51,700 nucleotides of DNA from a virus (taxonomy: Duplodnaviria > Caudoviricetes), in the IMG/VR virus record IMGVR_UViG_3300021168_000005, positions 1-51,700 of that record; one strand, 5' to 3'. The translations under genes were made by a program, and so were the position numbers. The notes below the pieces were generated by a model, which saw only the letters and a program-made list of their open reading frames with translations, was not told the DNA's origin and did no database searches. The first letter of the stretch is position 1. The number at the start of each line of letters is the position of its first letter. Of this stretch, positions 2,614 through 48,800 are shown piece after piece.

Positions 2614-2940
2614 ATGACAAAAGAAGATTATTTAAAACGTTTCAAAGAAATAACTGAAGAAATGTTTCGAATTACTAGTATAAAAAATCATGATTATTCT
2701 CCAGGGGATGAAGCTTTAGCCAACTTTAACGAGTTTGGCGCTGCTGGAGTGTTGGTTCGGATTTCAGATAAGACGAAGCGGTTAAAGACTGCTTTATGGC
2801 ATAAGCAAGATTATCTTGTTAATGAAACTGTTATTGACACTGTTACAGATTTAGCAGTCTATTCTGTAATATTAAGAATTCTTGCTGAAGAAGAAGCTAA
2901 AAAGGAAAAGCCGGCCATTATTGTAAAGGTTAGAAAATGA
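2614..2940 (+). CDS. DUF1599 / nucleotide-modification-associated domain protein (all-alpha NTP pyrophosphatase-like)
   Basis: KNHDYS...NF...GVLVRISDKTKRL...DTVTDLAVYS motif. Confidence 0.75.
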   Translation: MTKEDYLKRFKEITEEMFRITSIKNHDYSPGDEALANFNEFGAAGVLVRISDKTKRLKTALWHKQDYLVNETVIDTVTDLAVYSVILRILAEEEAKKEKPAIIVKVRK

Positions 2941-4049
2941 TAATCCGAGATTATGGAGATGAGAAGAACCCTATCTGGGTTGTAATGAGGGAAGCCTATG
3001 CTAAGGATAGTGAGCAAGGTTATCTACTGTCTTGTGGTTACGGCCATAACTTTAAAAAAACATGGAAGCTCAGTGGAGCAAGTGATCCTTTTATCACTTC
3101 TATCAATCCTGAACTTTCTATTCCTTATGATTGGGCTTCTCAATCTCTGCTCTTTCTTACAAAGATTAATAATTATCAACCGAAAATAATAGTCGTCCTT
3201 GGGGACGAGTTATTAAATACTTTTGTTCCGTATACAAAGCAGAAGAATGCTAAAGCTTCAAGCCTCACGAAGTGGGCTGGCTCACTCCTACGGAGTGATT
3301 TGTTGACATACGATCATTATATAATTCCAAGTTACGAACCAGACTTTGTATCTTCTAATTGGGATTACCATGAAATTCAGGGATTTATAGACTTCGGTCA
3401 TGTTAAAGAGGAGGTAGATTATTTCAATGCTAATAACAAACTTAATCCTCTTCCTATGCGTAGTATCATTACGAATCCTACATATGATAACTTATGTGAT
3501 TATCTACGGTGGCTTGTTTCTGAGTGGAGTGCAAATAGGCTATCTTTTGTCTCCTCAGATATCGAAACTATCCGTCCTAAAAAAAGTACTAACTATCATA
3601 CTATTGGCCATCCCGGTTACACTTATACTATTAGCCTTGCTCCATCAATTAAAGAAGCGATAAGTTTTTGTTTTTGGGATTATCCTGCGGAGCAAGCTAT
3701 TAAGATATGGAGACTTCTAAATGCTGTTCTTAGTCAGGTGCCACAGATTGGTCAAAATTATTTTAGCTTTGATTCCCATCATCTGGAAGCACTCGGATAT
3801 AAATTACATTTATCTTTATGCCAAGATACATTATTACGGCACCATATCCTCTGGCCCGGCCTTCCTCATAAGCTACAATTCCAAACTAGACAATACACCA
3901 GAGAACCCTACTATAAAGACGAAGGGAAAAATTGGAGTTCTAAACAAAAGCATCAACTTATGAGGTATAATTGTCTCGATGCTATGGTAACATACGAGAT
4001 TTATCTCGCTCAAGAAGGAGAATTTAATGACCGACCGCATCTTCGTTAA
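2937..4049 (+). CDS. DNA polymerase A N-terminal half: degenerate UDG-like domain plus 3'-5' exonuclease
   Basis: Family-4 UDG-like N-terminus (PKIIVVLG, IIPSYEP). Exo I SSDIET, Exo II GQNYFSFD, Exo III YNCLDA. Confidence 0.8.
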   Translation: MIIRDYGDEKNPIWVVMREAYAKDSEQGYLLSCGYGHNFKKTWKLSGASDPFITSINPELSIPYDWASQSLLFLTKINNYQPKIIVVLGDELLNTFVPYTKQKNAKASSLTKWAGSLLRSDLLTYDHYIIPSYEPDFVSSNWDYHEIQGFIDFGHVKEEVDYFNANNKLNPLPMRSIITNPTYDNLCDYLRWLVSEWSANRLSFVSSDIETIRPKKSTNYHTIGHPGYTYTISLAPSIKEAISFCFWDYPAEQAIKIWRLLNAVLSQVPQIGQNYFSFDSHHLEALGYKLHLSLCQDTLLRHHILWPGLPHKLQFQTRQYTREPYYKDEGKNWSSKQKHQLMRYNCLDAMVTYEIYLAQEGEFNDRPHLR

Positions 4050-4785: not shown

Positions 4786-4961
4786 TGTTGCGACAAATAT
4801 ATCAAATAACATTATCTTATGCTACTTATGGAATCATTGTGGATAACGGCATTGTAATACATGCTCCGCCTATAGCACAATGGATGATAGGTAAGCATAT
4901 TAATGAAATAATGGATTGGGTAAACCGTAAACATGGAACAATTGATAACATCATCTTATGA
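4785..4961 (+). CDS. hypothetical 58-aa protein (not in ORF track)
   Basis: Translated by hand: MLRQIYQITLSYATYGIIVDNGIVIHAPPIAQWMIGKH..., TAATG coupling with the upstream gene. Confidence 0.55.
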   Translation: MLRQIYQITLSYATYGIIVDNGIVIHAPPIAQWMIGKHINEIMDWVNRKHGTIDNIIL

Positions 4962-6456
4962 ACACAAACTCGCAAATGCATATCATCGCATTGATAAACG
5001 AGGTTTGCTGTTTGATACTACTGCCCTTGAACAGGTCAGAGTCAAGGTTCAATCGGAACTTGATAACATCTGCGGTTGGTTTACTAATCAATGGAGTTAT
5101 CCTGTATTCATAGGGGCAAAAAAGGGTATCCCAAAAGATACGAAATTTCTGAATTTAAATAGCCCTCAGAAAGTTCTAGAAGCTTTTAAAGAGCAAGGTT
5201 ATAAAGTACCAAAGGTACGGATTAAGAATGTTGAAAGTGATGAATATGAATGGAATGAAAGTGTTAAAGAACTTGCCATGCGTAAGCTTATGGCTGATCC
5301 TACTTTGTGGCCTCATCCTCAAGGCGGAGATGCCATTAAAAAATATCTTGATTTAAAAGAATTAGTAACTTTCCGAAATAGGAATATAAATGCACGTTTT
5401 CGTAGCGTACCTTACGGTGCAATTTTTTATTCTAGTTATAATGTTGCTAGTACAGTTACTGGCAGACGCGGGTCACGAAAAAATATATTCGGTTTTGGAG
5501 GAAATGGGCAGAATTTTCCTACGAGGACTTCTTCTAGTGACGATTTTCGTAAGTGTATTATTGCTAGGCCCCGCCGTTTGTTCTTTTTTGTGGATCAAAA
5601 GCAAGCTGAAGACTGGCCAGTTCAAGCACTTGCAAAAAATTATGAAGCTTTAGAGGAGATGCGTAAAGGTGTTAATAGACATTATAAGTTCGCTAGTCTT
5701 ATTTTTGGTCGTAGTATTGATAGTCTTAGGATTGGTAGAAATAATCACGAGTTCGAAGCTGAGCTTCAATATAATCTTGGCAAACGTGGTCGCCATGCTA
5801 ATAATTATGGGATGCGTGCTGATAGGTTTTCTGAAATTTTAACTACTGAAGGTTACTCTGTACCTAAGTCAACTTGTGAGGTTATCCTTGACAAGATCAA
5901 TAAAGCCGACCCCAACGTCGATGGAGTTTTTCATTCGTATATCCAGAAACAAATCTACGATACAAGAATTTTGCGAACTCCACTTGGACGAGAACGCCAG
6001 TTCTTTGGAGTTAGACAGAATGATAAGAATTATGCAATTCTTAATGAAGCGTATTCTTACATACCACAGTCTACAATCGGTGATAATACTGGGCTTGCCA
6101 TACTCTACTTGGATGCGTGTAATGATTACGTTGTACAGGAAGGACATGACAGTATTATCCAAGAGTTACCTGATTCCTTACAAGAACTACTCAAAGTTTA
6201 TGAAGATACTACGAAAGCATTTAAAAGAATTATCACTTTCGATAACGGGATTAGCGTTGAAATCCCTATTGAGGGAAAACTCGGGTTTGACTGGTTCAAT
6301 ACAGTAGAAATTAAAAGTTGGACTCCTGAAGGCATCGCAGATGCTTATAAAGAACTCCATGAAAAGTATCATAATAGATATGAAGAAAAACAACAAAATA
6401 TAGTCATACCAAGGGAGCAAAATGCCACGACTGTTAACGAAGTCATGGCTGGATAG
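4933..6456 (+). CDS. polA: DNA polymerase A, polymerase domain (C-terminal half of split PolA)
   Basis: TVTGR, NGQNFP, motif A VDQKQAED, motif B GKRGRHANNYG, TPLGRER, motif C GHDS. Confidence 0.9.
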   Translation: MEQLITSSYEHKLANAYHRIDKRGLLFDTTALEQVRVKVQSELDNICGWFTNQWSYPVFIGAKKGIPKDTKFLNLNSPQKVLEAFKEQGYKVPKVRIKNVESDEYEWNESVKELAMRKLMADPTLWPHPQGGDAIKKYLDLKELVTFRNRNINARFRSVPYGAIFYSSYNVASTVTGRRGSRKNIFGFGGNGQNFPTRTSSSDDFRKCIIARPRRLFFFVDQKQAEDWPVQALAKNYEALEEMRKGVNRHYKFASLIFGRSIDSLRIGRNNHEFEAELQYNLGKRGRHANNYGMRADRFSEILTTEGYSVPKSTCEVILDKINKADPNVDGVFHSYIQKQIYDTRILRTPLGRERQFFGVRQNDKNYAILNEAYSYIPQSTIGDNTGLAILYLDACNDYVVQEGHDSIIQELPDSLQELLKVYEDTTKAFKRIITFDNGISVEIPIEGKLGFDWFNTVEIKSWTPEGIADAYKELHEKYHNRYEEKQQNIVIPREQNATTVNEVMAG

Positions 6457-7812: not shown

Positions 7813-8137
7813 ATATCAAAAAACTTGCAAAGATACAAGAGCTTATAAAGATTACGGCCAAGGTACAATCGGTCCCGTATCTTATTGTGTTCTGGGTCTT
7901 TGTGGTGAAGCTGGAGAAGTAGCAAATAAAATCAAGAAAATCCTGCGCGGAGATTATATTCTCGATGCGCTAGCAATAGACCAAATTCTTGATGAGCTTG
8001 GCGATGTTCTTTGGTACACTGCCATGCTTGCAGATGAGCTTAATGCTGATCTATCGGTTGTTGCTATGAAGAATTTAAACAAGCTCCGCTTGAGAAAAAA
8101 TATGAACACTATAAAAGGAACTGGAGATAAACGATGA
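7793..8137 (+). CDS. mazG: MazG-like nucleotide pyrophosphohydrolase
   Basis: LGLCGEAGEVANKIKK...ELGDVLWY; AGGAG RBS favours the ATG at 7793. Confidence 0.88.
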   Translation: MPLTLDEYQKTCKDTRAYKDYGQGTIGPVSYCVLGLCGEAGEVANKIKKILRGDYILDALAIDQILDELGDVLWYTAMLADELNADLSVVAMKNLNKLRLRKNMNTIKGTGDKR

Positions 8138-8703
8138 AGTCAAAAGATAATTTTGATCCAAAAGAATGGGCCGTTATTAATGAAAGTGAAGCTTTACGTG
8201 CTGTTGATGATAGAATTTTAGTTCTCGAAGATGAATTTCGTTCAGGTTTAGAATGTTCTTCTTGCAAAGGTAAAGGCCATACAGATATAGTCTGTAAATA
8301 TTGTAAAGGTACTACATTTTACAAAGCAGACCGTGATAGCGGCGCCTGTCCTGACTGTGAAGTCGGCACTTTAGGGATTAGAAAGTCCTTTGGATACGAG
8401 CTTTGCAGTGTATGCAAGGGCCGTGGAGCGTCTGTAATAATTCCTGACTCATCTAAGCGTCCAACACTGACGGGGCGCGTTATATCAATCGGCAGGAATG
8501 TCACAGAGTTTCGGGTCGGTGATCGGGTATTATTTACGAATTACACTGGTACAGATTTTACTGTCTCTGGTACGAAGTTAAGAATTATGAAACAGTACGA
8601 TGTGTGTTGTGAACATAAACAGCTTTCTAGAAAAGAAAAAACTCCGCAGAGCGGAGCTATTAGAGATGAACTTGTTAGTGCTGGTGTACAACCTTTAGAT
8701 TAA
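8134..8703 (+). CDS. groES: GroES/Cpn10 co-chaperonin with inserted DnaJ-type zinc-finger domain
   Basis: LRAVDDRILV ... IIPDSSKRPTLTGRVISIG ... VGDRVLFTNYTGT ... IMKQYD matches GroES. The insert has four CxxC(xGxG) repeats. Confidence 0.85.
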   Translation: MKSKDNFDPKEWAVINESEALRAVDDRILVLEDEFRSGLECSSCKGKGHTDIVCKYCKGTTFYKADRDSGACPDCEVGTLGIRKSFGYELCSVCKGRGASVIIPDSSKRPTLTGRVISIGRNVTEFRVGDRVLFTNYTGTDFTVSGTKLRIMKQYDVCCEHKQLSRKEKTPQSGAIRDELVSAGVQPLD

Positions 8704-9071
8704 AGAACGACTTCTAGTTCTTTATCAGGATCGTTATTAATCATTTCTCTTTGAGCTTTTAGCATTCCAACTATACAACCATGAGATGCTAAATGTTGGC
8801 CGAATTTTGCTTTACTGTCGGGATGAATTCTAAAATCTTCTCTTCCGAAAGTATTAGTACCATTTATAGGCGTTAGGTTCATAGTAACTGGGCCTAACTT
8901 AAGATGGTCATAGGCTGGACCGATACGGTATAATCCTCTCGGAAGAGGACCGACATTCTTTACTTCTTGCATATTAGGATTATTAAGTCCTAATCCTATT
9001 CCTGAATAACAGCAGGCAAAAAATTCTCCGTTCTTATATAATTTTCCCGAACTCTGAGAGAAAGTCCACAC
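8700..9071 (-). CDS. Tlde1/DUF2778 L,D-transpeptidase-family protein, candidate endolysin
   Basis: YSG..G.NNP...GPLPRGLY.IG...GR..FRIH...ASHGCI, the YkuD-like H...SHGC catalytic motif. Confidence 0.8.
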   Translation of the reverse strand: MWTFSQSSGKLYKNGEFFACCYSGIGLGLNNPNMQEVKNVGPLPRGLYRIGPAYDHLKLGPVTMNLTPINGTNTFGREDFRIHPDSKAKFGQHLASHGCIVGMLKAQREMINNDPDKELEVVL

Positions 9072-10751: not shown

Positions 10752-11144
10752 TTATAAATCATCAATAGCTTTTTCATAATCTATCCAGTTAACTTTCAGC
10801 TCCGCTGAGAGTAGCCGTTCTAAGTTTGTAGCAAAGAAATGTTCTGTTCTATACGGAGCATGAGGATCATCTCCAGGTTCAGCATGGCTATCTTTACTTC
10901 GTTTCTTCTCATATTCAACATCAAACGCTGTTACCTGTTCATCCGTAATACCTCTGTCAAGACAGAGAAGTACCTCTACGAGTTCATGTATACCAACAAG
11001 TAATTCATATCGCCAGTTCCCAATTTTAGATACTCTTATCAAGATAGTATCTTTCTCCGCATCAATCTGCCAATCTCCGACTGTCGGATAACGTTGTTTA
11101 TCATGGTCAATAGTTTCAATTAGTATATTCATTATCTTAACCAT
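10752..11144 (-). CDS. HExxE zincin-like metalloprotein
   Basis: VGIHELVE ... EHFFATNLE metal-ligand pattern; start may be 11132. Confidence 0.6.
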   Translation of the reverse strand: MVKIMNILIETIDHDKQRYPTVGDWQIDAEKDTILIRVSKIGNWRYELLVGIHELVEVLLCLDRGITDEQVTAFDVEYEKKRSKDSHAEPGDDPHAPYRTEHFFATNLERLLSAELKVNWIDYEKAIDDL

Positions 11145-12406
11145 CCTTGCGACATTAGAGTATTATATCGTTTATGTACACAAGTAAGGATATCAGCACG
11201 ATATTGCATGTTCGGTATCTGAAGTTTTTTAATTTTAGAATCTATTTTGCTAAAAGCTTCTGGAATAGTACTGCCGCTCGCAATTGGAACTGTTATTAAT
11301 CCACTAATTCCTGCGGTTACTAATTCGTCTTCTTTGTTAATGCAGCAATCATAAAGATAGTAAGACCGCCAGATATCTTCGACATCTTCTAATCCTTGAA
11401 TAGGAATATCCGGATGATGATGACCATCTATTTCAGAAGGATACGGAGGAATAGAAATTCTTACTCCACCTGCATACTGCGTTTTAATTCTGTATTCAGG
11501 TTTCACACCATGTGCTATCATTGCTAAGAACTCTGCAAGATCAGAACTTATAATATGAAATAATGTCGGAGACGCATCATAGCCGAAGCGTGGTGTCCAT
11601 TCAAGACCGTACATTTCTCGGTCACTTACGATAGTATTAAGATCAATCATCCCTCTATACTTAGCACTTCGCAAGAAGTCTTTAAGCTTTCCAAGTCCTT
11701 CCCGAAACACAAGAGGAAGATTAAGACTATCATAAATAAAAACGAGATTACCAGCGCAGCCAGTATTAGGCCCTTTCCCACCTTCCATGAATTTCTTTTC
11801 TTCGAGAGTTCCATTAACCAGATAAAAATCTTCTCCATTGAACCAACCTTCGGTAGAAACTTCAGTTCCTTCAACAACTTCTTGAAGTAGAAATTCTACG
11901 CCTTTGATAACGCTACCGAGTTTATCAATATAACGCAGCATATCTTCTGGCGACTTACTCACGTAAGTAAATGCCGTATCTTGATCTCCGAAGGCTTTAA
12001 AAACGTATCTCTTTTTAGTTTTCTTAATAAAACTCTTCGCTTCGCCAAGATCGTTAAACTCTTTGTATGGCGGAACATTAATACCACACTGTTCCATTAT
12101 CTGTATACCAGCAAGTCGGTTATTCTCAATTTCACTAGCGAAGCCACTATCGCCTATAACAGGCGCTAAAGTTGCGGCTTCATCAGCAACTTTAGCCATA
12201 TCTGTTGAATCAAAAATTATAAGATCATATTTCTTAAAATCTGGTTTCTCCATCATTAAATCAGGGCAAAGTCCTCCAAGAGCGTTGGAGTAAGCTTTAT
12301 TCTTTTTACCACAATAATAAATATCAACACTATGACCCTCTTCAAGAAATCTCAAAGAGAACCAATTACCAACGCATTCGTGAGTTACTAGTAATAGTTT
12401 TGCCAT
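11132..12406 (-). CDS. PurD (GAR synthetase)-like ATP-grasp ligase
   Basis: YVFK, LQEVVEGTEVS, EEKKFMEGGKGPNTGCAG (compare PurD GPNTGGMG), LEWTPRFGYD. Confidence 0.8.
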   Translation of the reverse strand: MAKLLLVTHECVGNWFSLRFLEEGHSVDIYYCGKKNKAYSNALGGLCPDLMMEKPDFKKYDLIIFDSTDMAKVADEAATLAPVIGDSGFASEIENNRLAGIQIMEQCGINVPPYKEFNDLGEAKSFIKKTKKRYVFKAFGDQDTAFTYVSKSPEDMLRYIDKLGSVIKGVEFLLQEVVEGTEVSTEGWFNGEDFYLVNGTLEEKKFMEGGKGPNTGCAGNLVFIYDSLNLPLVFREGLGKLKDFLRSAKYRGMIDLNTIVSDREMYGLEWTPRFGYDASPTLFHIISSDLAEFLAMIAHGVKPEYRIKTQYAGGVRISIPPYPSEIDGHHHPDIPIQGLEDVEDIWRSYYLYDCCINKEDELVTAGISGLITVPIASGSTIPEAFSKIDSKIKKLQIPNMQYRADILTCVHKRYNTLMSQGWLR

Positions 12407-43728: not shown

Positions 43729-44025
43729 ATGCTTATAAGACGATTAAAAATTAAGATATTCCATCCACCGGATAATAAGTCTTATAAGCTTCTTATTATC
43801 AATGCAGGCAGTGGCAAGTATTTTCATGCTGTTGGCATTGAGAATGAGCTTATGCGAATTGCAGATTCTATAGAGAGTAGTTTTCCTGAGTTTGAATATA
43901 GAATGGTTCCGACAGGAACAGATTCGTTTAATTTCATTTTCACTGGTATCAAACAGAAAGTTGAAGCAGTAGAGGCAGTAAATAATCAAAAAGGAGACTT
44001 ACAAAATGGCAACTACAGCAATTGA
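43729..44025 (+). CDS. hypothetical protein
   Basis: 98 aa, downstream of the promoter. Confidence 0.55.
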   Translation: MLIRRLKIKIFHPPDNKSYKLLIINAGSGKYFHAVGIENELMRIADSIESSFPEFEYRMVPTGTDSFNFIFTGIKQKVEAVEAVNNQKGDLQNGNYSN

Positions 44026-44599
44026 CCGTGCTTCCGCACCTGCGGCAGCAGAAAGTAACGTAACTTCAGAACGTCAAGATTATGTTATTGGTTATGATCT
44101 TGGTGTTGATGAAAAAACAGGCGCAAAGACGCGAGTGGTCGCGTTCAGGGAAATTACCAGCGAAGAGCAGCTTGCGGCAGTTAAAAAGCTTCGCGATGAA
44201 GGAAAGTTTGCAGACGTAACCACGGTTACTGTTTCTATTCCAAGGGCAAAGAATCTTGATGGTATTAAGGCAATTTGCCCGAATGAAGAGGAAGCGGCTG
44301 CAAATTTTAATCGCGGTGCAAAACAGAAGGCGAATAATCGCTTGAAAGCGATTTTGCTCGAAGAGACGGGAACTGGTGAAGTTGCTTTTGATCCTGAGAG
44401 TGCCGTAGATGAAAATGGAACTAAGCGCGTTGTTAATGGCGTTCTTGATCTTACTTCGGAGATCGCTAGCGAGAGCAAGCGAAAGGTTCTCACTGAAGAA
44501 GAGAAACTTGATCGTTTCTTGGAACAGTTCCCCGAGTCTGTTCGTGCAGCAATGAAGTCTGCTTATCAAGCTTCGCGGCAGGCTGCACCTGCGGCTTAA
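44006..44599 (+). CDS. hypothetical protein
   Basis: AAGGAG RBS, 197 aa, followed by a terminator. Confidence 0.75.
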   Translation: MATTAIDRASAPAAAESNVTSERQDYVIGYDLGVDEKTGAKTRVVAFREITSEEQLAAVKKLRDEGKFADVTTVTVSIPRAKNLDGIKAICPNEEEAAANFNRGAKQKANNRLKAILLEETGTGEVAFDPESAVDENGTKRVVNGVLDLTSEIASESKRKVLTEEEKLDRFLEQFPESVRAAMKSAYQASRQAAPAA

Positions 44600-44644
44600 A
44601 TAATATTCGCTGGAGTTATGAACCAGCGATAGCTTGCAAGCAAT

Positions 44645-44676
44645 GAGGTTCTCAGAAATGGGAACCTCTTTTTTTT
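44645..44676 (+). terminator. intrinsic terminator
   Basis: GAGGTTCTCA-GAAA-TGGGAACCTC-T8. Confidence 0.85.
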
Positions 44677-44701
44677 ATCCCTATTTCACAAAGGAGGATT
44701 T

Positions 44702-44890
44702 ATGTTTTGGAAATCAAAAGATTTTAAAGGTCACGAAGTTATGATTAACATTGAAGAAATTCTTGTTTTAATTTCACATGGCTCACTTGATCCTGGTGAA
44801 GTAATTATATCACGTGATAGATCAGTATTTTTAAATCAGAAAGAATATAAAGAGTTAGTAGATTTCCTGCCGCAAATTACCGGCAGTTAG
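44702..44890 (+). CDS. hypothetical protein
   Basis: AGGAGG RBS, 62 aa. Confidence 0.65.
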   Translation: MFWKSKDFKGHEVMINIEEILVLISHGSLDPGEVIISRDRSVFLNQKEYKELVDFLPQITGS

Positions 44891-44895
44891 ACTAT

Positions 44896-45303
44896 TTACT
44901 TTGCTGGTCCTTCAATTGCTTTAGTGATTAGTGAAATGAATTTAGCTTCTGTTAGTATTACTTTTTTGCGTTTAAATTTGTCTGTAGTTTGTACGAATAA
45001 TGTTTTATGCCCAAACTCTTTTTCTTCATGTTTTTTAATTATGTTACAATTAGCACATAAGCACTGAAAATCTCTTTTATTTTTTGTGCCGTTAAGAATA
45101 GCTCTATATAAAGCTATACCACTATCTGCGTATGTTCTATTTTTAGTTACAAAACATTCTTTATGATCTAATTGTAACGCACGGATATCAGTAAAGCCAC
45201 ATCTACAACATTTAGAACCATAAAGAGCTAATACTTCTAATCTACATTTTTGATTATAGTCACGATGATAATTTGGATTTATATACTGTTGTTTATTTGG
45301 CAT
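44896..45303 (-). CDS. HNH-type endonuclease
   Basis: YGSKCCRCG...LQLDH...FQCLCANCN; own promoter TTGACA-N17-TAAGCT at 45313-45341 on the - strand. Confidence 0.75.
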   Translation of the reverse strand: MPNKQQYINPNYHRDYNQKCRLEVLALYGSKCCRCGFTDIRALQLDHKECFVTKNRTYADSGIALYRAILNGTKNKRDFQCLCANCNIIKKHEEKEFGHKTLFVQTTDKFKRKKVILTEAKFISLITKAIEGPAK

Positions 45304-45349
45304 AGTCTTTATAGCTTAAAGCATATTTTCTGGCGTGTCAATAGCTAGG

Positions 45350-45410
45350 TAACTCACTGATTTCACAGGACTTAGATCGCTTGACAGTCAAATACGAAAC
45401 AGAGTAGACT
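45350..45410 (+). promoter_or_regulatory. IHF-like site plus sigma70 promoter (divergent from the HNH promoter)
   Basis: TAACTCACTGATTTCACAGGACTTA, then TTGACA-N18-TAGACT. Confidence 0.65.
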
Positions 45411-45443
45411 TGAAAATGACCTTGTATAAAGGACTTAAATTTT

Positions 45444-45974
45444 ATGCCGCGTTACAACAGAAACTCTGGTCCAGTAAACGTATCTCTTTCATGGTCTACC
45501 ATGATTGGTGCATACAATCTCAAGTTTGATAATGCCTACGGAGATTTTGATAAAGTTAAAGCAGTTATCACTTGGATTAAAATGACAATTCCTTCTAATG
45601 AACGAGATTATGATCCTGATACTTATGAATGGACTATCCACGAGAAATATTTTCAAACTCTGAAAGATGTTATTGAAGGGATTTCTGGCTTTAACTTTTC
45701 GTATTTTGAAAAGCCTCTTGGCAGTAGTCAAACGAAATTTGTTCCTTTGGATGAATACACAAAACTCTTTCAATATGTAACCAATCAAGATGCAACACAG
45801 CTTGAATATAAAGATGCGTTGCGCGCATATAGATTAGCTGCGCTAAGAATGCATCCGGATAGACATCCAGAAGATCCATCAGCAGGACAAAAAATGTCAG
45901 AATTTAACGAAGCATGGAACGTAATCAAAGAGAGACATTTTAAAATTGTGAAAGTGATGGAGCACGTTCAATGA
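45444..45974 (+). CDS. J-domain protein with N-terminal HARP-like domain
   Basis: RAYRLAALRMHPDRHP...MSEFNEAWNVI is a J-domain with HPD. IKMTIPSNERDYDPDTYEWTI is HARP-like. Confidence 0.8.
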   Translation: MPRYNRNSGPVNVSLSWSTMIGAYNLKFDNAYGDFDKVKAVITWIKMTIPSNERDYDPDTYEWTIHEKYFQTLKDVIEGISGFNFSYFEKPLGSSQTKFVPLDEYTKLFQYVTNQDATQLEYKDALRAYRLAALRMHPDRHPEDPSAGQKMSEFNEAWNVIKERHFKIVKVMEHVQ

Positions 45975-46183
45975 TTCCACATAAAGAAGCATCCTTTACA
46001 ATTCTAGCTCCGAATGATTTCCATCGTTGTTTATGGCTAGGTTGTAGACGACAGGGAGATTTTCACGCATTCGCTAAAAATGATAGAGATAGTTATATTT
46101 TTGACTATCCAAACATTTGTGGTGTTCATGTTGTCATGGCTGCTATAGAATTTTGCGCTGTAAATGATAAAGGTGAATTTTAA
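45971..46183 (+). CDS. small Zn-binding protein
   Basis: CLWLGC...ICGVH, ATGA coupling. Confidence 0.55.
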   Translation: MIPHKEASFTILAPNDFHRCLWLGCRRQGDFHAFAKNDRDSYIFDYPNICGVHVVMAAIEFCAVNDKGEF

Positions 46184-46185
46184 AC

Positions 46186-46656
46186 ATGCCGCGATTGCGG
46201 TATTATAAAAACTTTGATTATGAAGCTAACGCTGACGCTGAAGATAATAGCGAAGCTGATAGCGGAAAAAGTTGGCTCTCTAATGCGCAAATTATTTCTT
46301 CGTTTTCAACGAGTAAACTCGAAGAAGCTCTCGCTCGTTATAAAGCAATCGTTAGATTGCTGGAGATGGAATTATTATCGCGTTCTTTTAATAATCGCAA
46401 GCATCCTGCTGAAAGCAGCAGTAGCGATTCACACGTATTTACTAACACGCAAGAGCGTGATAGAAACGGACGAACAAATGCAAAGAGAGAAAGAAATAAC
46501 AACAAAAGTTATAAAGTTTCAACGATGAGAGCGATGTTAAGAACATTAAAAATTTCGCCAGAAGCGAAAAGGCTGCTCTTTGAGCAGTGGTGTAAAATTC
46601 AACAAGAGGAGCATAATCATGGCAGTAAAGTTAAAGAAAGTGAAAAGACACCTTAG
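46186..46656 (+). CDS. hypothetical protein
   Basis: AAGGTG RBS, 156 aa. Confidence 0.6.
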   Translation: MPRLRYYKNFDYEANADAEDNSEADSGKSWLSNAQIISSFSTSKLEEALARYKAIVRLLEMELLSRSFNNRKHPAESSSSDSHVFTNTQERDRNGRTNAKRERNNNKSYKVSTMRAMLRTLKISPEAKRLLFEQWCKIQQEEHNHGSKVKESEKTP

Positions 46657-46876
46657 TGCTTCTGCTATTCGTAGTATTCGCAAAGCACAAAAAAGACGTT
46701 GGGCAGCATTTCATGCTGAACAAGACAAAACAAATGGAACTGTAAAAGTTACACAATCTGCAAAGACGGTAATGAAGGTGTTAGTAAATAGATTGTTATC
46801 TGAACGTACAAAGATATACAACAATCCGATGGAAGCATATATTGGTGGGTTTCTCGATGGAAGATCAAGTAAATAA
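46619..46876 (+). CDS. small basic protein with LSASAIRSIRKAQKRRWAA motif
   Basis: GAGGAG RBS before ATG 46619; K/R-rich. Confidence 0.65.
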   Translation: MAVKLKKVKRHLSASAIRSIRKAQKRRWAAFHAEQDKTNGTVKVTQSAKTVMKVLVNRLLSERTKIYNNPMEAYIGGFLDGRSSK

Positions 46877-46932
46877 TTTATAAAGCGGCTTAAAAAGCCG
46901 CTGGCATAAAATCTATTATAAGGAGTCACAAA

Positions 46933-47661
46933 GTGACTGAAGAAAACAAACTCGAAAAACCATCAAACATCGTTGAGATGTTTAAACCTAAGAAGTGGGG
47001 CATAGCTGCGGCAAAAGAACAAGCGAAGAAAGCAATTGCAGATTTAGACCCATCTACGATGGAACATCGTCTTGGAATCGTTTTCGATGATAGTGGTAGT
47101 ATGGGTTCTAAAGTAGATGATAAAACAAAAATAGATCATGCTCATGCAGGAATAAGAAACTTCACTGCACAATGTAATCCCAAGGATACTTCGTTAGCGA
47201 TTTATCCGCTTAATAAAACACCGCAGGCATTAACCTGCAATTACGACGTTCTCAATCTTTATGTAGGCACCATCAGAGAAAGTGGTGGAACTCCGTTATA
47301 TACAATCACAACTAAAATGCTCAACGAAGCTGATCTTACTCGTGGAGTATTATTTTCTGACGGGTCACCAACAGACGGTCATGCTGGTTATGGAGAAGAA
47401 TACGATAAAGACTTGAAAGAGGATATGATTAATTTGGCAATAGCCAAGAAAGTTCCTCTTGATACAATCTTTATTGGTTACGACGGCGAAAGTGGTTATG
47501 ATCTTCTGAAAGAAATAGCCGATCGCACAGGCGGTATCTTTGTTCATTTTAAAGATGCCAAGGCGCTAGGAGCTTCGCTTAAATACTTAGCACCCGCCTT
47601 GCGTGGAATCTTGATGAATGCAGAACTCAAAGAGAAAATACAACGTGGGGAAACAATATGA
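46933..47661 (+). CDS. von Willebrand factor A domain protein
   Basis: MIDAS DDSGS, GGTPL, LFSDGSP, LLKEIADRTGG. Confidence 0.9.
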   Translation: MTEENKLEKPSNIVEMFKPKKWGIAAAKEQAKKAIADLDPSTMEHRLGIVFDDSGSMGSKVDDKTKIDHAHAGIRNFTAQCNPKDTSLAIYPLNKTPQALTCNYDVLNLYVGTIRESGGTPLYTITTKMLNEADLTRGVLFSDGSPTDGHAGYGEEYDKDLKEDMINLAIAKKVPLDTIFIGYDGESGYDLLKEIADRTGGIFVHFKDAKALGASLKYLAPALRGILMNAELKEKIQRGETI

Positions 47662-48800
47662 ATCAGGTTAATAATATGAATCTAGAACAAACCAACAATA
47701 TAATTGCCCTTGGGCAGAAACTTGTTGGTTTAGGCATCGAAGCAAAATTCAGCCACGTTGAAGAAGGTCCGGTTGTCACAGTCTATTATTTTAAACTTGA
47801 CAGCGGCGAATCTGTTGCTAGAGTTATAAAACGAGCAGAAGATTTTGCTTTAGCAATGGAACAAGATAAAGTGATGGTTCAACGTGTCGGCGGTTTAATT
47901 GCCGTATTCGTTCCCAATGCAGAAAAAAAGATTGTAGACTTTAAGGATTATCTATACTGGTATCTCAATGATCCGAAAGTTAAAGCGCAAGCTCTTCCAA
48001 TTCCTTTGGGAGTTGATTATCGTGGTAATAAGAGTACTTTCGATTTAGTAGATATGCCACACTGTTTAATTACAGGTTCTACTAATAGCGGAAAATCCGT
48101 ACTCGAAGCGGCGATTCTTTCAGCGCTAAGCTTACATCGCGCGTCTAACGAGCTTAATTTCTATCTCTGCGATACTAAAATGGTCGATCTTCCACTTTTT
48201 AAAGATTTCCCACATGTAAAAGTAGTCGCAGATAACGTCCAAGCTTTTCATAATATGATGACTTGGATTATGCAAGAAACGCGGCGAAGACTCGCCGTCT
48301 TGCAAGGAGCTAGCTGTAGGAAAATCCAAGACTATCATAATATGTATAGCGGAGATATATCTATGATGCCGTATATCATAGTAATGATAGATGAGTTTGG
48401 AGACTTGATGGATCTTGACTCTGCAATTCGTAAAGGAGGCGATACCCTTGACGAAGTTCCTACCGTTAAACAATGGATTAAAAGTGCATCCCAAATATGC
48501 CGTGCAGCAGGCGTACATCTTATCTGTTGTACCCAACGCGCAAGCGTTAAAGTTGTTGATGGTGACATCAAAGCTAACCTACCTTGCAGGATTTCCCTTC
48601 GGTTGCCAACCCAAACGGATTCTCGTACTATTCTCGGTATTGGGGGAGCGGAGAATTTATTGGGCAATGGTGACATGCTTATCGCAAGGCCGGGAAAAGA
48701 TGCTCTTGAACGTTTTCACGGTCCATTTGTGTCGATGAATGATATAGCAGCGCTAATTTCTCAATATGATATGATGAAAACTATGTTCGCACCTAAATAA
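47658..48800 (+). CDS. FtsK/SpoIIIE-family ATPase (alpha+beta motor only)
   Basis: Alpha domain (GPVVTVY, VPN), PHCLITGSTNSGKS, VMIDEFGDL, RAAGVHLICCTQR, GAENLLGNGDML. Confidence 0.9.
   Translation: MNQVNNMNLEQTNNIIALGQKLVGLGIEAKFSHVEEGPVVTVYYFKLDSGESVARVIKRAEDFALAMEQDKVMVQRVGGLIAVFVPNAEKKIVDFKDYLYWYLNDPKVKAQALPIPLGVDYRGNKSTFDLVDMPHCLITGSTNSGKSVLEAAILSALSLHRASNELNFYLCDTKMVDLPLFKDFPHVKVVADNVQAFHNMMTWIMQETRRRLAVLQGASCRKIQDYHNMYSGDISMMPYIIVMIDEFGDLMDLDSAIRKGGDTLDEVPTVKQWIKSASQICRAAGVHLICCTQRASVKVVDGDIKANLPCRISLRLPTQTDSRTILGIGGAENLLGNGDMLIARPGKDALERFHGPFVSMNDIAALISQYDMMKTMFAPK

Follow-up and report, generated by a model that had tools for sequence, protein, structure and literature searches.

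A HARP-like domain joined to a J-domain in a protein of uncultured soil phages, and its possible use of host DnaK

J-domains recruit DnaK and trigger its ATPase. In the initiation of lambda replication host DnaK/DnaJ frees DnaB from lambda P, a case in which the host Hsp70 remodels a phage replication nucleoprotein complex. The HARP fold is otherwise known from SMARCAL1 and T4 UvsW, enzymes of superfamily 2 (SF2) that carry out annealing and fork reversal, where it serves as the module recognising the fork or junction substrate. Here we describe a phage gene in which a HARP-like domain and a J-domain are joined. The gene (45444-45974) lies in IMG/VR record IMGVR_UViG_3300021168_000005; the window, i.e., the whole stretch of DNA that was analysed, is a virus record of 51.7 kb that is complete and carries direct terminal repeats. 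The gene encodes a protein of 176 amino acids (aa), with the HARP-like domain at the N-terminus (N-domain) and the J-domain following it. While lambda uses the host DnaJ and has no J-protein of its own, the 176-aa protein would be the phage’s own targeting J-protein.

In the account given in PMC3486835, Rki (gene 057w of the T4-related phage RB43) is the only characterised phage J-domain protein. Rki is described there as a class C J-protein with a functional HPD (His-Pro-Asp) motif and one extra domain of its own, acting through host DnaK, and in these features the 176-aa protein would resemble it. In Rki, however, the J-domain is N-terminal (residues 2-70) and the C-terminal domain (76-237) is given as having no known relatives, while the 176-aa protein has a C-terminal J-domain and a HARP-like partner. 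Relative to the published architecture of the Rki family, in which the J-domain comes first and the Rki C-terminal domain second, the order is reversed here. Of 49 unique class C J-proteins from phages, 48 are without another known domain according to a 2026 review (PMC13254874, citing a survey). As the second domain can be named here, the protein offers a direct and testable hypothesis on where the phage sends DnaK. In the text of the same review, polyomavirus large T antigen couples a J-domain to a DNA-recognition module and uses host Hsp70 at the viral replication complex (PMC13254874). This likeness is an analogy only, as large T antigen belongs to a eukaryotic virus and carries its J-domain at the N-terminus, followed by an origin-binding domain and a superfamily 3 helicase in one chain. 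No published description of a protein with HARP and J-domain was found by full-text searches of the literature, although the earlier survey of phage J-proteins might list one.

Twelve close homologues of the 176-aa protein (176-191 aa, 44-99% identity) were identified, and a HMMER search of 1.84 billion cluster representatives gave 246 relatives at E <= 1e-3 and 46 at E <= 1e-10; the open reading frame (ORF) is therefore a real, conserved gene. Among 50,697 phage records, no match of cultured phages was obtained with either positions 44800-47700 (megablast) or the protein (tblastn). The J-domain matches of PHROGs to the protein were weak (best E 0.0015). A features search of the ESM Atlas returned only unnamed viral clusters with a best score of 0.76, which is a lead only.

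The J-domain had been predicted from the DNA as an intact HPD J-domain with helices II-III, and this was borne out, with helix I in addition. Pfam DnaJ (PF00226) matched residues 127-163, corresponding to helices II-III, and its score of 32.1 bits lies above the gathering cut-off (27.8); a DnaJ match (E <= 1) was obtained for 66 of 68 relatives. A profile of the 12-sequence family aligned with the residues of helices II and III of the E. coli DnaJ J-domain (1bqz, E 2.5e-6). With a 68-sequence profile, E-values against solved J-domains went down to 3e-10 over profile positions ~104-167. Since these alignments reach back to ~104, helix I is also present. H137, P138, and D139 were the sole invariant columns of the 68-sequence alignment. 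AlphaFold2, run with this alignment, gave a model with a mean predicted local distance difference test (pLDDT) score of 90.3 and helices at 102-113, 122-135, and 147-164; all three were predicted at pLDDT >= 94, and the HPD tripeptide sits in the loop between the second and the third. Helix IV was absent from the model, in which the last 12 residues are disordered (tail pLDDT 51). Compared with solved J-domain structures the model reached Z 5-6.9; the J-domain of large T antigen (1faf) was among the matches (Z 6.9; with the 68-sequence profile, E 3.8e-8). Only DnaJ and a weak HARP match were obtained with Pfam, and the DnaJ models of NCBIfam covered the J-domain part only, far under their cut-offs. 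As neither Pfam nor NCBIfam detected a glycine/phenylalanine-rich region, a CxxCxGxG zinc finger or a DnaJ C-terminal client-binding domain, the protein belongs to the class C (type III) J-proteins.

The N-domain is very probably a genuine but remote relative of HARP. In the AlphaFold2 model its elements follow in the order strand (11-18), strand (23-29), helix (35-48), strand (54-57), strand (62-65), helix (67-79), and strand (83-88). This composition agrees with the HARP fold, which is described in PMC4666394 as five strands and two helices. K46, P50, R54, Y56, W63, and E67 are conserved. Modelled alone, the N-domain reached a pLDDT of 78.8. When this model was compared with the viral structures of BFVD, a single match was obtained at E <= 1e-3, the ‘HepA-related protein’ of Bacillus phage vB_BcoS-136 (E 3.5e-4, probability 1.00, 85 columns); a phage ATP-dependent helicase ranked second and a 73-aa phage ‘SWI/SNF-related’ protein fifth (TMt 0.60). 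The vB_BcoS-136 protein (gp5; MH884508, 2485-3222, minus strand) contains two Pfam HARP matches, one of them above the cut-off at 27.8 bits. An N-domain profile was built from 15 sequences (three DNA references, three short proteins, and nine parts of proteins) and compared with this protein by hhalign (probability 89.6%, E 1.9e-6, 29% identity, 48 columns); the alignment fell exactly on the Pfam-validated HARP repeat, residues 196-243. Searched against 177,635 distinct PDB sequences, the same profile gave as its top, though marginal, match the HARP domain of SMARCAL1 (4o66, titled ‘substrate recognition domain’ in the PDB; E 0.041, 16.8 bits). This alignment spans helix 1, strand 3, strand 4, and helix 2 with the common pattern K..P..R.YD..TK.W. 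The N-domain thus shares the five-stranded sheet, the two helices and the signature with SMARCAL1 and the phage HARP proteins, but is a single copy and not tandem, acidic and not basic, and joined to a J-domain instead of an SNF2/SF2 motor. T4 UvsW, which acts in phage replication and recombination, has a similar fold in its N-terminal domain (Pfam UvsW_N, PF21241), for which the description is that of a single HARP domain; the full model aligned with it (1rif_B) over 65 residues with Z 6.0 and a root-mean-square deviation of 2.8. There the domain is part of an SF2 helicase, sequence similarity is absent, and UvsW_N is a separate Pfam family.

A number of observations weigh against the HARP assignment or against an action of the domain at DNA. 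Pfam HARP (PF07443) matched residues 42-78 of the 176-aa protein with only 13.2 bits (E 0.064). Sub-threshold matches to the same region were obtained for 3 of 12 close homologues, 18 of 68 relatives (best E 1.7e-4) and 9 of 30 longer relatives, and the best score throughout the family, 22.2 bits, stays under the cut-off of 25 bits. We therefore call the N-domain HARP-like and not a member of Pfam HARP; the HARP-like N-terminus of the original prediction stands as a remote relationship. In comparisons with solved structures, any domain of HARP type was outscored by eIF1/YciH (Z 7.0-7.3) and by Prp protease (Z 6.8), the N-domain of XPB (Z 5.5-5.8) was among those aligning as well or better, and 4o66 was missing among the 50 matches listed for the N-domain. 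Since eIF1 and Prp reach scores at least as high, HARP cannot be told apart from them by its fold alone. Foldseek gave nothing at E <= 0.001 in the PDB for either the N-domain model or the whole model, for which J-domains and Prp ranked top; 4o66 was matched at E 0.46 (TMt 0.51). In the PDB sequence search with the N-domain profile, a designed FN3 protein, a chance match, scored nearly as well as 4o66 (E 0.059). By hhalign the family showed no similarity to the N-domain of T4 UvsW (probability 0.04%). The N-domain is acidic, with a net charge of -4 and an isoelectric point (pI) of 4.7 (family median -1, pI 5.9), while the Pfam-validated phage HARP repeat is basic (+4, pI 9.2), and basic charge is confined to a short N-terminal tail (median +2). 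The acidic charge speaks weakly against the binding of forks or of junctions of single- and double-stranded DNA by this domain. Iterons or origin-like repeats beside and upstream of the J-domain gene (J gene) were found in none of four relatives. To our knowledge, every characterised HARP acts with an SF2 motor in the same polypeptide, and the 176-aa protein has none. Standalone phage HARP proteins exist, however, so a fused motor is typical of HARP and not obligatory.

The association of the two domains was counted in 150 listed representatives, eight of which had themselves contributed, whole or in part, to the N-domain hidden Markov model (HMM). The HMM (E <= 1e-3) matched 140 of them, and HPD or HPE was present downstream in 137; the three others are pieces of 86-117 aa. 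An SF2/SNF2 motor was joined to the N-domain in none of the 140, the J-domain being the only setting seen. Neither a single-sequence search among longer proteins nor a profile search among proteins of 41-205 aa detected the N-domain in another architecture, the latter returning only the J-family itself. Judged from these sequences, the fusion of HARP-like domain and J-domain is obligate, and the family is large, with no fewer than 137 representatives of clusters formed at 50% identity. In 39 of the 137 the N-terminus is longer by more than 60 residues, with two or more CxxC pairs in 24 of these 39, and two long variants gave weak double-zinc-ribbon Pfam matches. Extensions of 60-300 aa with zinc-ribbon-like CxxC pairs were seen in P0046, P0122, P0071, P0163 (L043:4140-5306) and 20 more. 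In a quick tree of 150 family proteins these extensions were scattered and did not form one clade, a pattern that start-codon miscalls or fragments among the ‘short’ forms could give as well.

To place the gene in its genomic context, related loci were gathered by a pattern scan of IMG/VR and the family HMM. The two-domain protein was present in 31 viral contigs; further loci comprised ten with ordinary J-proteins only and one cut copy. Five complete records share the major capsid protein of the window (49-97% identity), and the complete records are one lineage of ~47-51 kb genomes plus one record of 99.6 kb. The latter (G016, the record behind L028 and L048) is labelled ‘complete’ at about twice the usual ~50 kb. 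A record of 33.9 kb (L017/L047) has J and GroES loci identical to those of G016, which may be a concatemer or have been duplicated in assembly. Terminase and capsid have only 21-36% identity to cultured phages, and at the sequence level the lineage is without a cultured relative among the 50,697 phage records. The sequencing runs that contain window DNA are labelled soil metagenome, and one independent study has 88% of the sampled words. The J gene is conserved in this uncultured lineage of soil phages, and its function is therefore unlikely to be incidental.

Gene order is kept in 21 loci. A minus-strand terminase with a small gene and a variable region of ~6 kb are followed by the J gene and then by genes for a vWA-like protein, an FtsK-like ATPase, (Tlde1), a 49198-like protein, a PD-(D/E)XK nuclease, Sak4, a 1972-like protein, and PolA; in the window, primase-helicase, MazG and a GroES with zinc-finger-like CxxC motifs (GroES-ZnF) come after PolA. 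The J gene precedes the same conserved module in all 21 loci, wherever the locus extends far enough; among the conserved genes for replication and recombination it thus comes first. The vWA-like gene follows it in 20 of the 21 loci, the remaining one ending first, and the residues of its metal ion-dependent adhesion site (MIDAS) are invariant among relatives.

The GroES-ZnF gene marks the far end of this plus-strand module, ~14 kb downstream of the J gene if the terminal-repeat ends are joined. Pfam Cpn10 matched in 9 of the 31 records and in four of the five complete ones; most of the other records are fragments with 12-57% completeness. In the fifth complete record a protein search detected a divergent ORF resembling GroES (E 1.1e-7), and eight of the nine Cpn10 ORFs have 3-4 CxxC pairs, the ninth being split by the end of its record. 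The co-occurrence of the two genes, as originally predicted, is therefore found in 5 of 5 complete related genomes. All of these belong to one lineage, however, so that co-inheritance suffices as an account, function and descent are inseparable, and the co-occurrence is no independent evidence for a link between DnaK and GroEL. That two DnaJ modules on two separate proteins link the DnaK and GroEL systems is speculation. Of the original prediction as a whole, both domain calls and the co-occurrence were upheld, and the context fits a role in replication or recombination, while the proposed DnaK-GroEL link was left unsupported by co-occurrence within one lineage. In the GroES-ZnF proteins an insert of ~60-70 aa with four CxxC motifs occupies the position of the mobile loop, and two to four of these motifs are CxxCxGxG-like. 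A hydrophobic tripeptide (III/VII/VWI) is retained after the insert, which is conserved in the lineage down to ~30% identity (L047-L055), and Pfam Cpn10 matches begin only at profile position 21-23.

What the protein does can be approached from the two domains and their setting. We tentatively propose, as a close call, that this class C J-protein recruits host DnaK to branched phage DNA or to a nucleoprotein complex on it. No Pfam match to Hsp70 was found among 54 window ORFs scanned, and we therefore infer that the partner is the DnaK of the host. The J-domain would dock on ATP-bound host DnaK and trigger ATP hydrolysis, and the HARP-like domain would select the site where DnaK acts. HARP domains, as reported in PMC13728640, let SMARCAL1 act on forks; together with the position of the gene at the head of the replication module, this favours a target that is either branched DNA or a nucleoprotein complex. 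DnaK would most likely be brought to branched DNA of the phage, or to a complex of protein and DNA there, in the course of initiation or of recombination-dependent replication. Phage proteins that DnaK may load, release or recycle at such sites include the primase-helicase, the Sak4 annealase and the vWA/FtsK-like pair. By analogy, such a role would resemble that of the J-domain of SV40 large T antigen and the use of DnaK/DnaJ by lambda. If the HARP-like domain binds forked DNA, the protein would be the counterpart, in a bacterial virus, of the J-domain of T antigen, and a module for fork recognition would have passed between motors of the SF2 and the Hsp70 kind. Rather doubtful is a wider proposal, by which the HARP-J proteins would constitute a new class of Hsp70 co-chaperones targeted to DNA structures and, with the zinc-finger GroES, would form a two-armed takeover of both major host chaperone systems. 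It would mean that a fork-recognition domain was rewired from an SF2 motor to a J-domain, with host DnaK serving as the ATPase that loads or strips proteins of replication and recombination at branched phage DNA.

Because the acidic N-domain weakens the DNA part of the proposal, we retain a model in which the HARP-like domain has lost, or never possessed, the ability to bind DNA and instead holds a specific phage or host protein, which the J-domain passes to DnaK for folding, assembly or disassembly; we regard it as possible, though on the unlikely side. The client might be one of the two neighbours (vWA-like or FtsK-like), or else a protein of replication or of the virion. A MIDAS typically binds an acidic residue of a partner, and a vWA-like gene with a complete MIDAS follows the J gene almost throughout the 21 loci; as the whole module is syntenic in the lineage, however, this adjacency is weak evidence. 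The nearness of the fold to protein- and RNA-binding folds (eIF1/YciH and Prp, see above) also speaks for an adaptor, as does the statement in PMC3486835 that class C J-proteins usually deliver one dedicated client. Yet the HARP signature K..P...R.YD..TK.W is retained, which argues that the ancestral function was kept.

Two further models turn on DnaK itself. The protein might act like Rki, which binds DnaK and stabilises sigma-32 according to PMC3486835 and PMC13254874: DnaK would be titrated or redirected, sigma-32 released and stabilised, and the heat-shock regulon raised, providing more GroEL for the phage GroES variant and for capsid folding. This would agree with the placement of the J gene in the early/replication module and would give a meaning to the GroES variant in all five complete relatives. 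It is improbable nevertheless, since the architecture of Rki is the opposite one (N-terminal J-domain and a 160-aa C-terminal domain), the conserved HARP-like domain would be left unexplained, and the co-occurrence with GroES is restricted to one lineage. Competition with host DnaJ for DnaK, as described for Rki in PMC3486835, could also serve counter-defence by blunting DnaJ-dependent phage sensing, which PMC12169576 describes for bNACHT25, or other chaperone-dependent defences. We consider this purely speculative idea highly improbable: it gives the HARP-like domain no role, and PADLOC returned no match for the 176-aa protein, i.e., no defence or anti-defence signal.

Table 1. Positions of the J gene, its domains and the features discussed with it (window coordinates).
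Feature	Position	Strand	Basis or remark
Terminator-like hairpin closing upstream gene 44006-44599	44645..44668	+	Upstream of HNH gene
HNH endonuclease gene	44896..45303	minus	Between hairpin and promoter-like site
Sigma-70-like promoter consensus match, TTGACA-18-TAGACT	45381..45410	+	10/12 positions; 34 nucleotides before J gene start
HARP-like + J-domain gene	45444..45974	+	ORF, 176 aa, ATG start; ~20.7 kDa, pI 6.2
HARP-like domain, residues 11-88	45474..45707	+	AlphaFold2 topology, BFVD match, hhalign, PDB sequence match
J-domain, residues 102-164, helices I-III	45747..45935	+	Pfam DnaJ, profile matches, AlphaFold2 helices
HPD codons, His137-Pro138-Asp139	45852..45860	+	Read from sequence; invariant in 68/68 aligned relatives
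vWA-like protein, complete MIDAS (D52-x-S54-x-S56, T120, D143)	46933..47661	+	Weak VWA_2 E 0.016; VWA2 structure E 0.0061
FtsK/SpoIIIE-like ATPase	47658..48800	+	Pfam FtsK_SpoIIIE E 5.5e-29; synteny
GroES (Cpn10) with four CxxC motifs inserted	8134..8703	+	Pfam Cpn10 E 1.4e-9

The region upstream of the J gene gives some hints on its transcription (Table 1). A good promoter had been predicted; it amounts to a match to the sigma-70 consensus only, as sites of this kind are no commoner in the region than expected (6, compared to 7.8 +/- 2.8 in shuffled sequences). The terminator-like hairpin makes it likely that the J gene begins a new unit. Contigs from two RNA libraries over 44006-44599 end at 44592 and 44642, a weak hint. 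A soil metatranscriptome library contained one contig of 151 nucleotides (nt) identical to part of the J gene, at depth 2; this again is a weak hint, as RNA libraries may contain DNA, and the contig does not establish transcription of the gene.

In a related strain (run X3, 90-99% alike) a contig joins 44608 directly to 45427 and thus skips 818 nt (44609-45426), which carry a 62-aa ORF, the HNH gene and the promoter-like site. The HNH gene is also missing from this place in the relatives L002, L003, and L007; the segment has the appearance of a mobile HNH element inserted shortly before the J gene. Directly downstream, a 70-aa Cys/His-rich ORF (45971-46183, plus strand) overlaps the stop codon of the J gene by 4 nt (ATGA). 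It gave a weak match to a CHC2 (DnaG-type) zinc finger (E 0.066), and a homologue with 50% identity was present only in L003 (5410-5706) and not in the wider lineage.

Further along the module, the vWA-like gene and the FtsK-like gene overlap by 4 nt, and the pair comes after the J gene in every locus reaching that far. The PADLOC models SspH and mad8 also gave matches to the FtsK-like ATPase, within their own FtsK-like part. The family A DNA polymerase of the window is split into two ORFs (2937-4049 and 4933-6456, plus strand) that lie ~880 nt apart, and an HNH endonuclease gene is located at or beside the split in the relatives L035, L022, and L020. No tRNA genes were found. An ORF in the minus-strand late region (11132-12406) resembles phosphoribosylglycinamide synthetase (ATP-grasp; GARS_A, E 2.1e-11). 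The gene with a Tlde1 domain (L,D-transpeptidase-like) follows GroES on the minus strand in the window (8700-9071), while in many relatives (L045, L016, L035, and others) it is found on the plus strand between the FtsK-like and the 49198-like genes; it therefore appears to have moved within the lineage.

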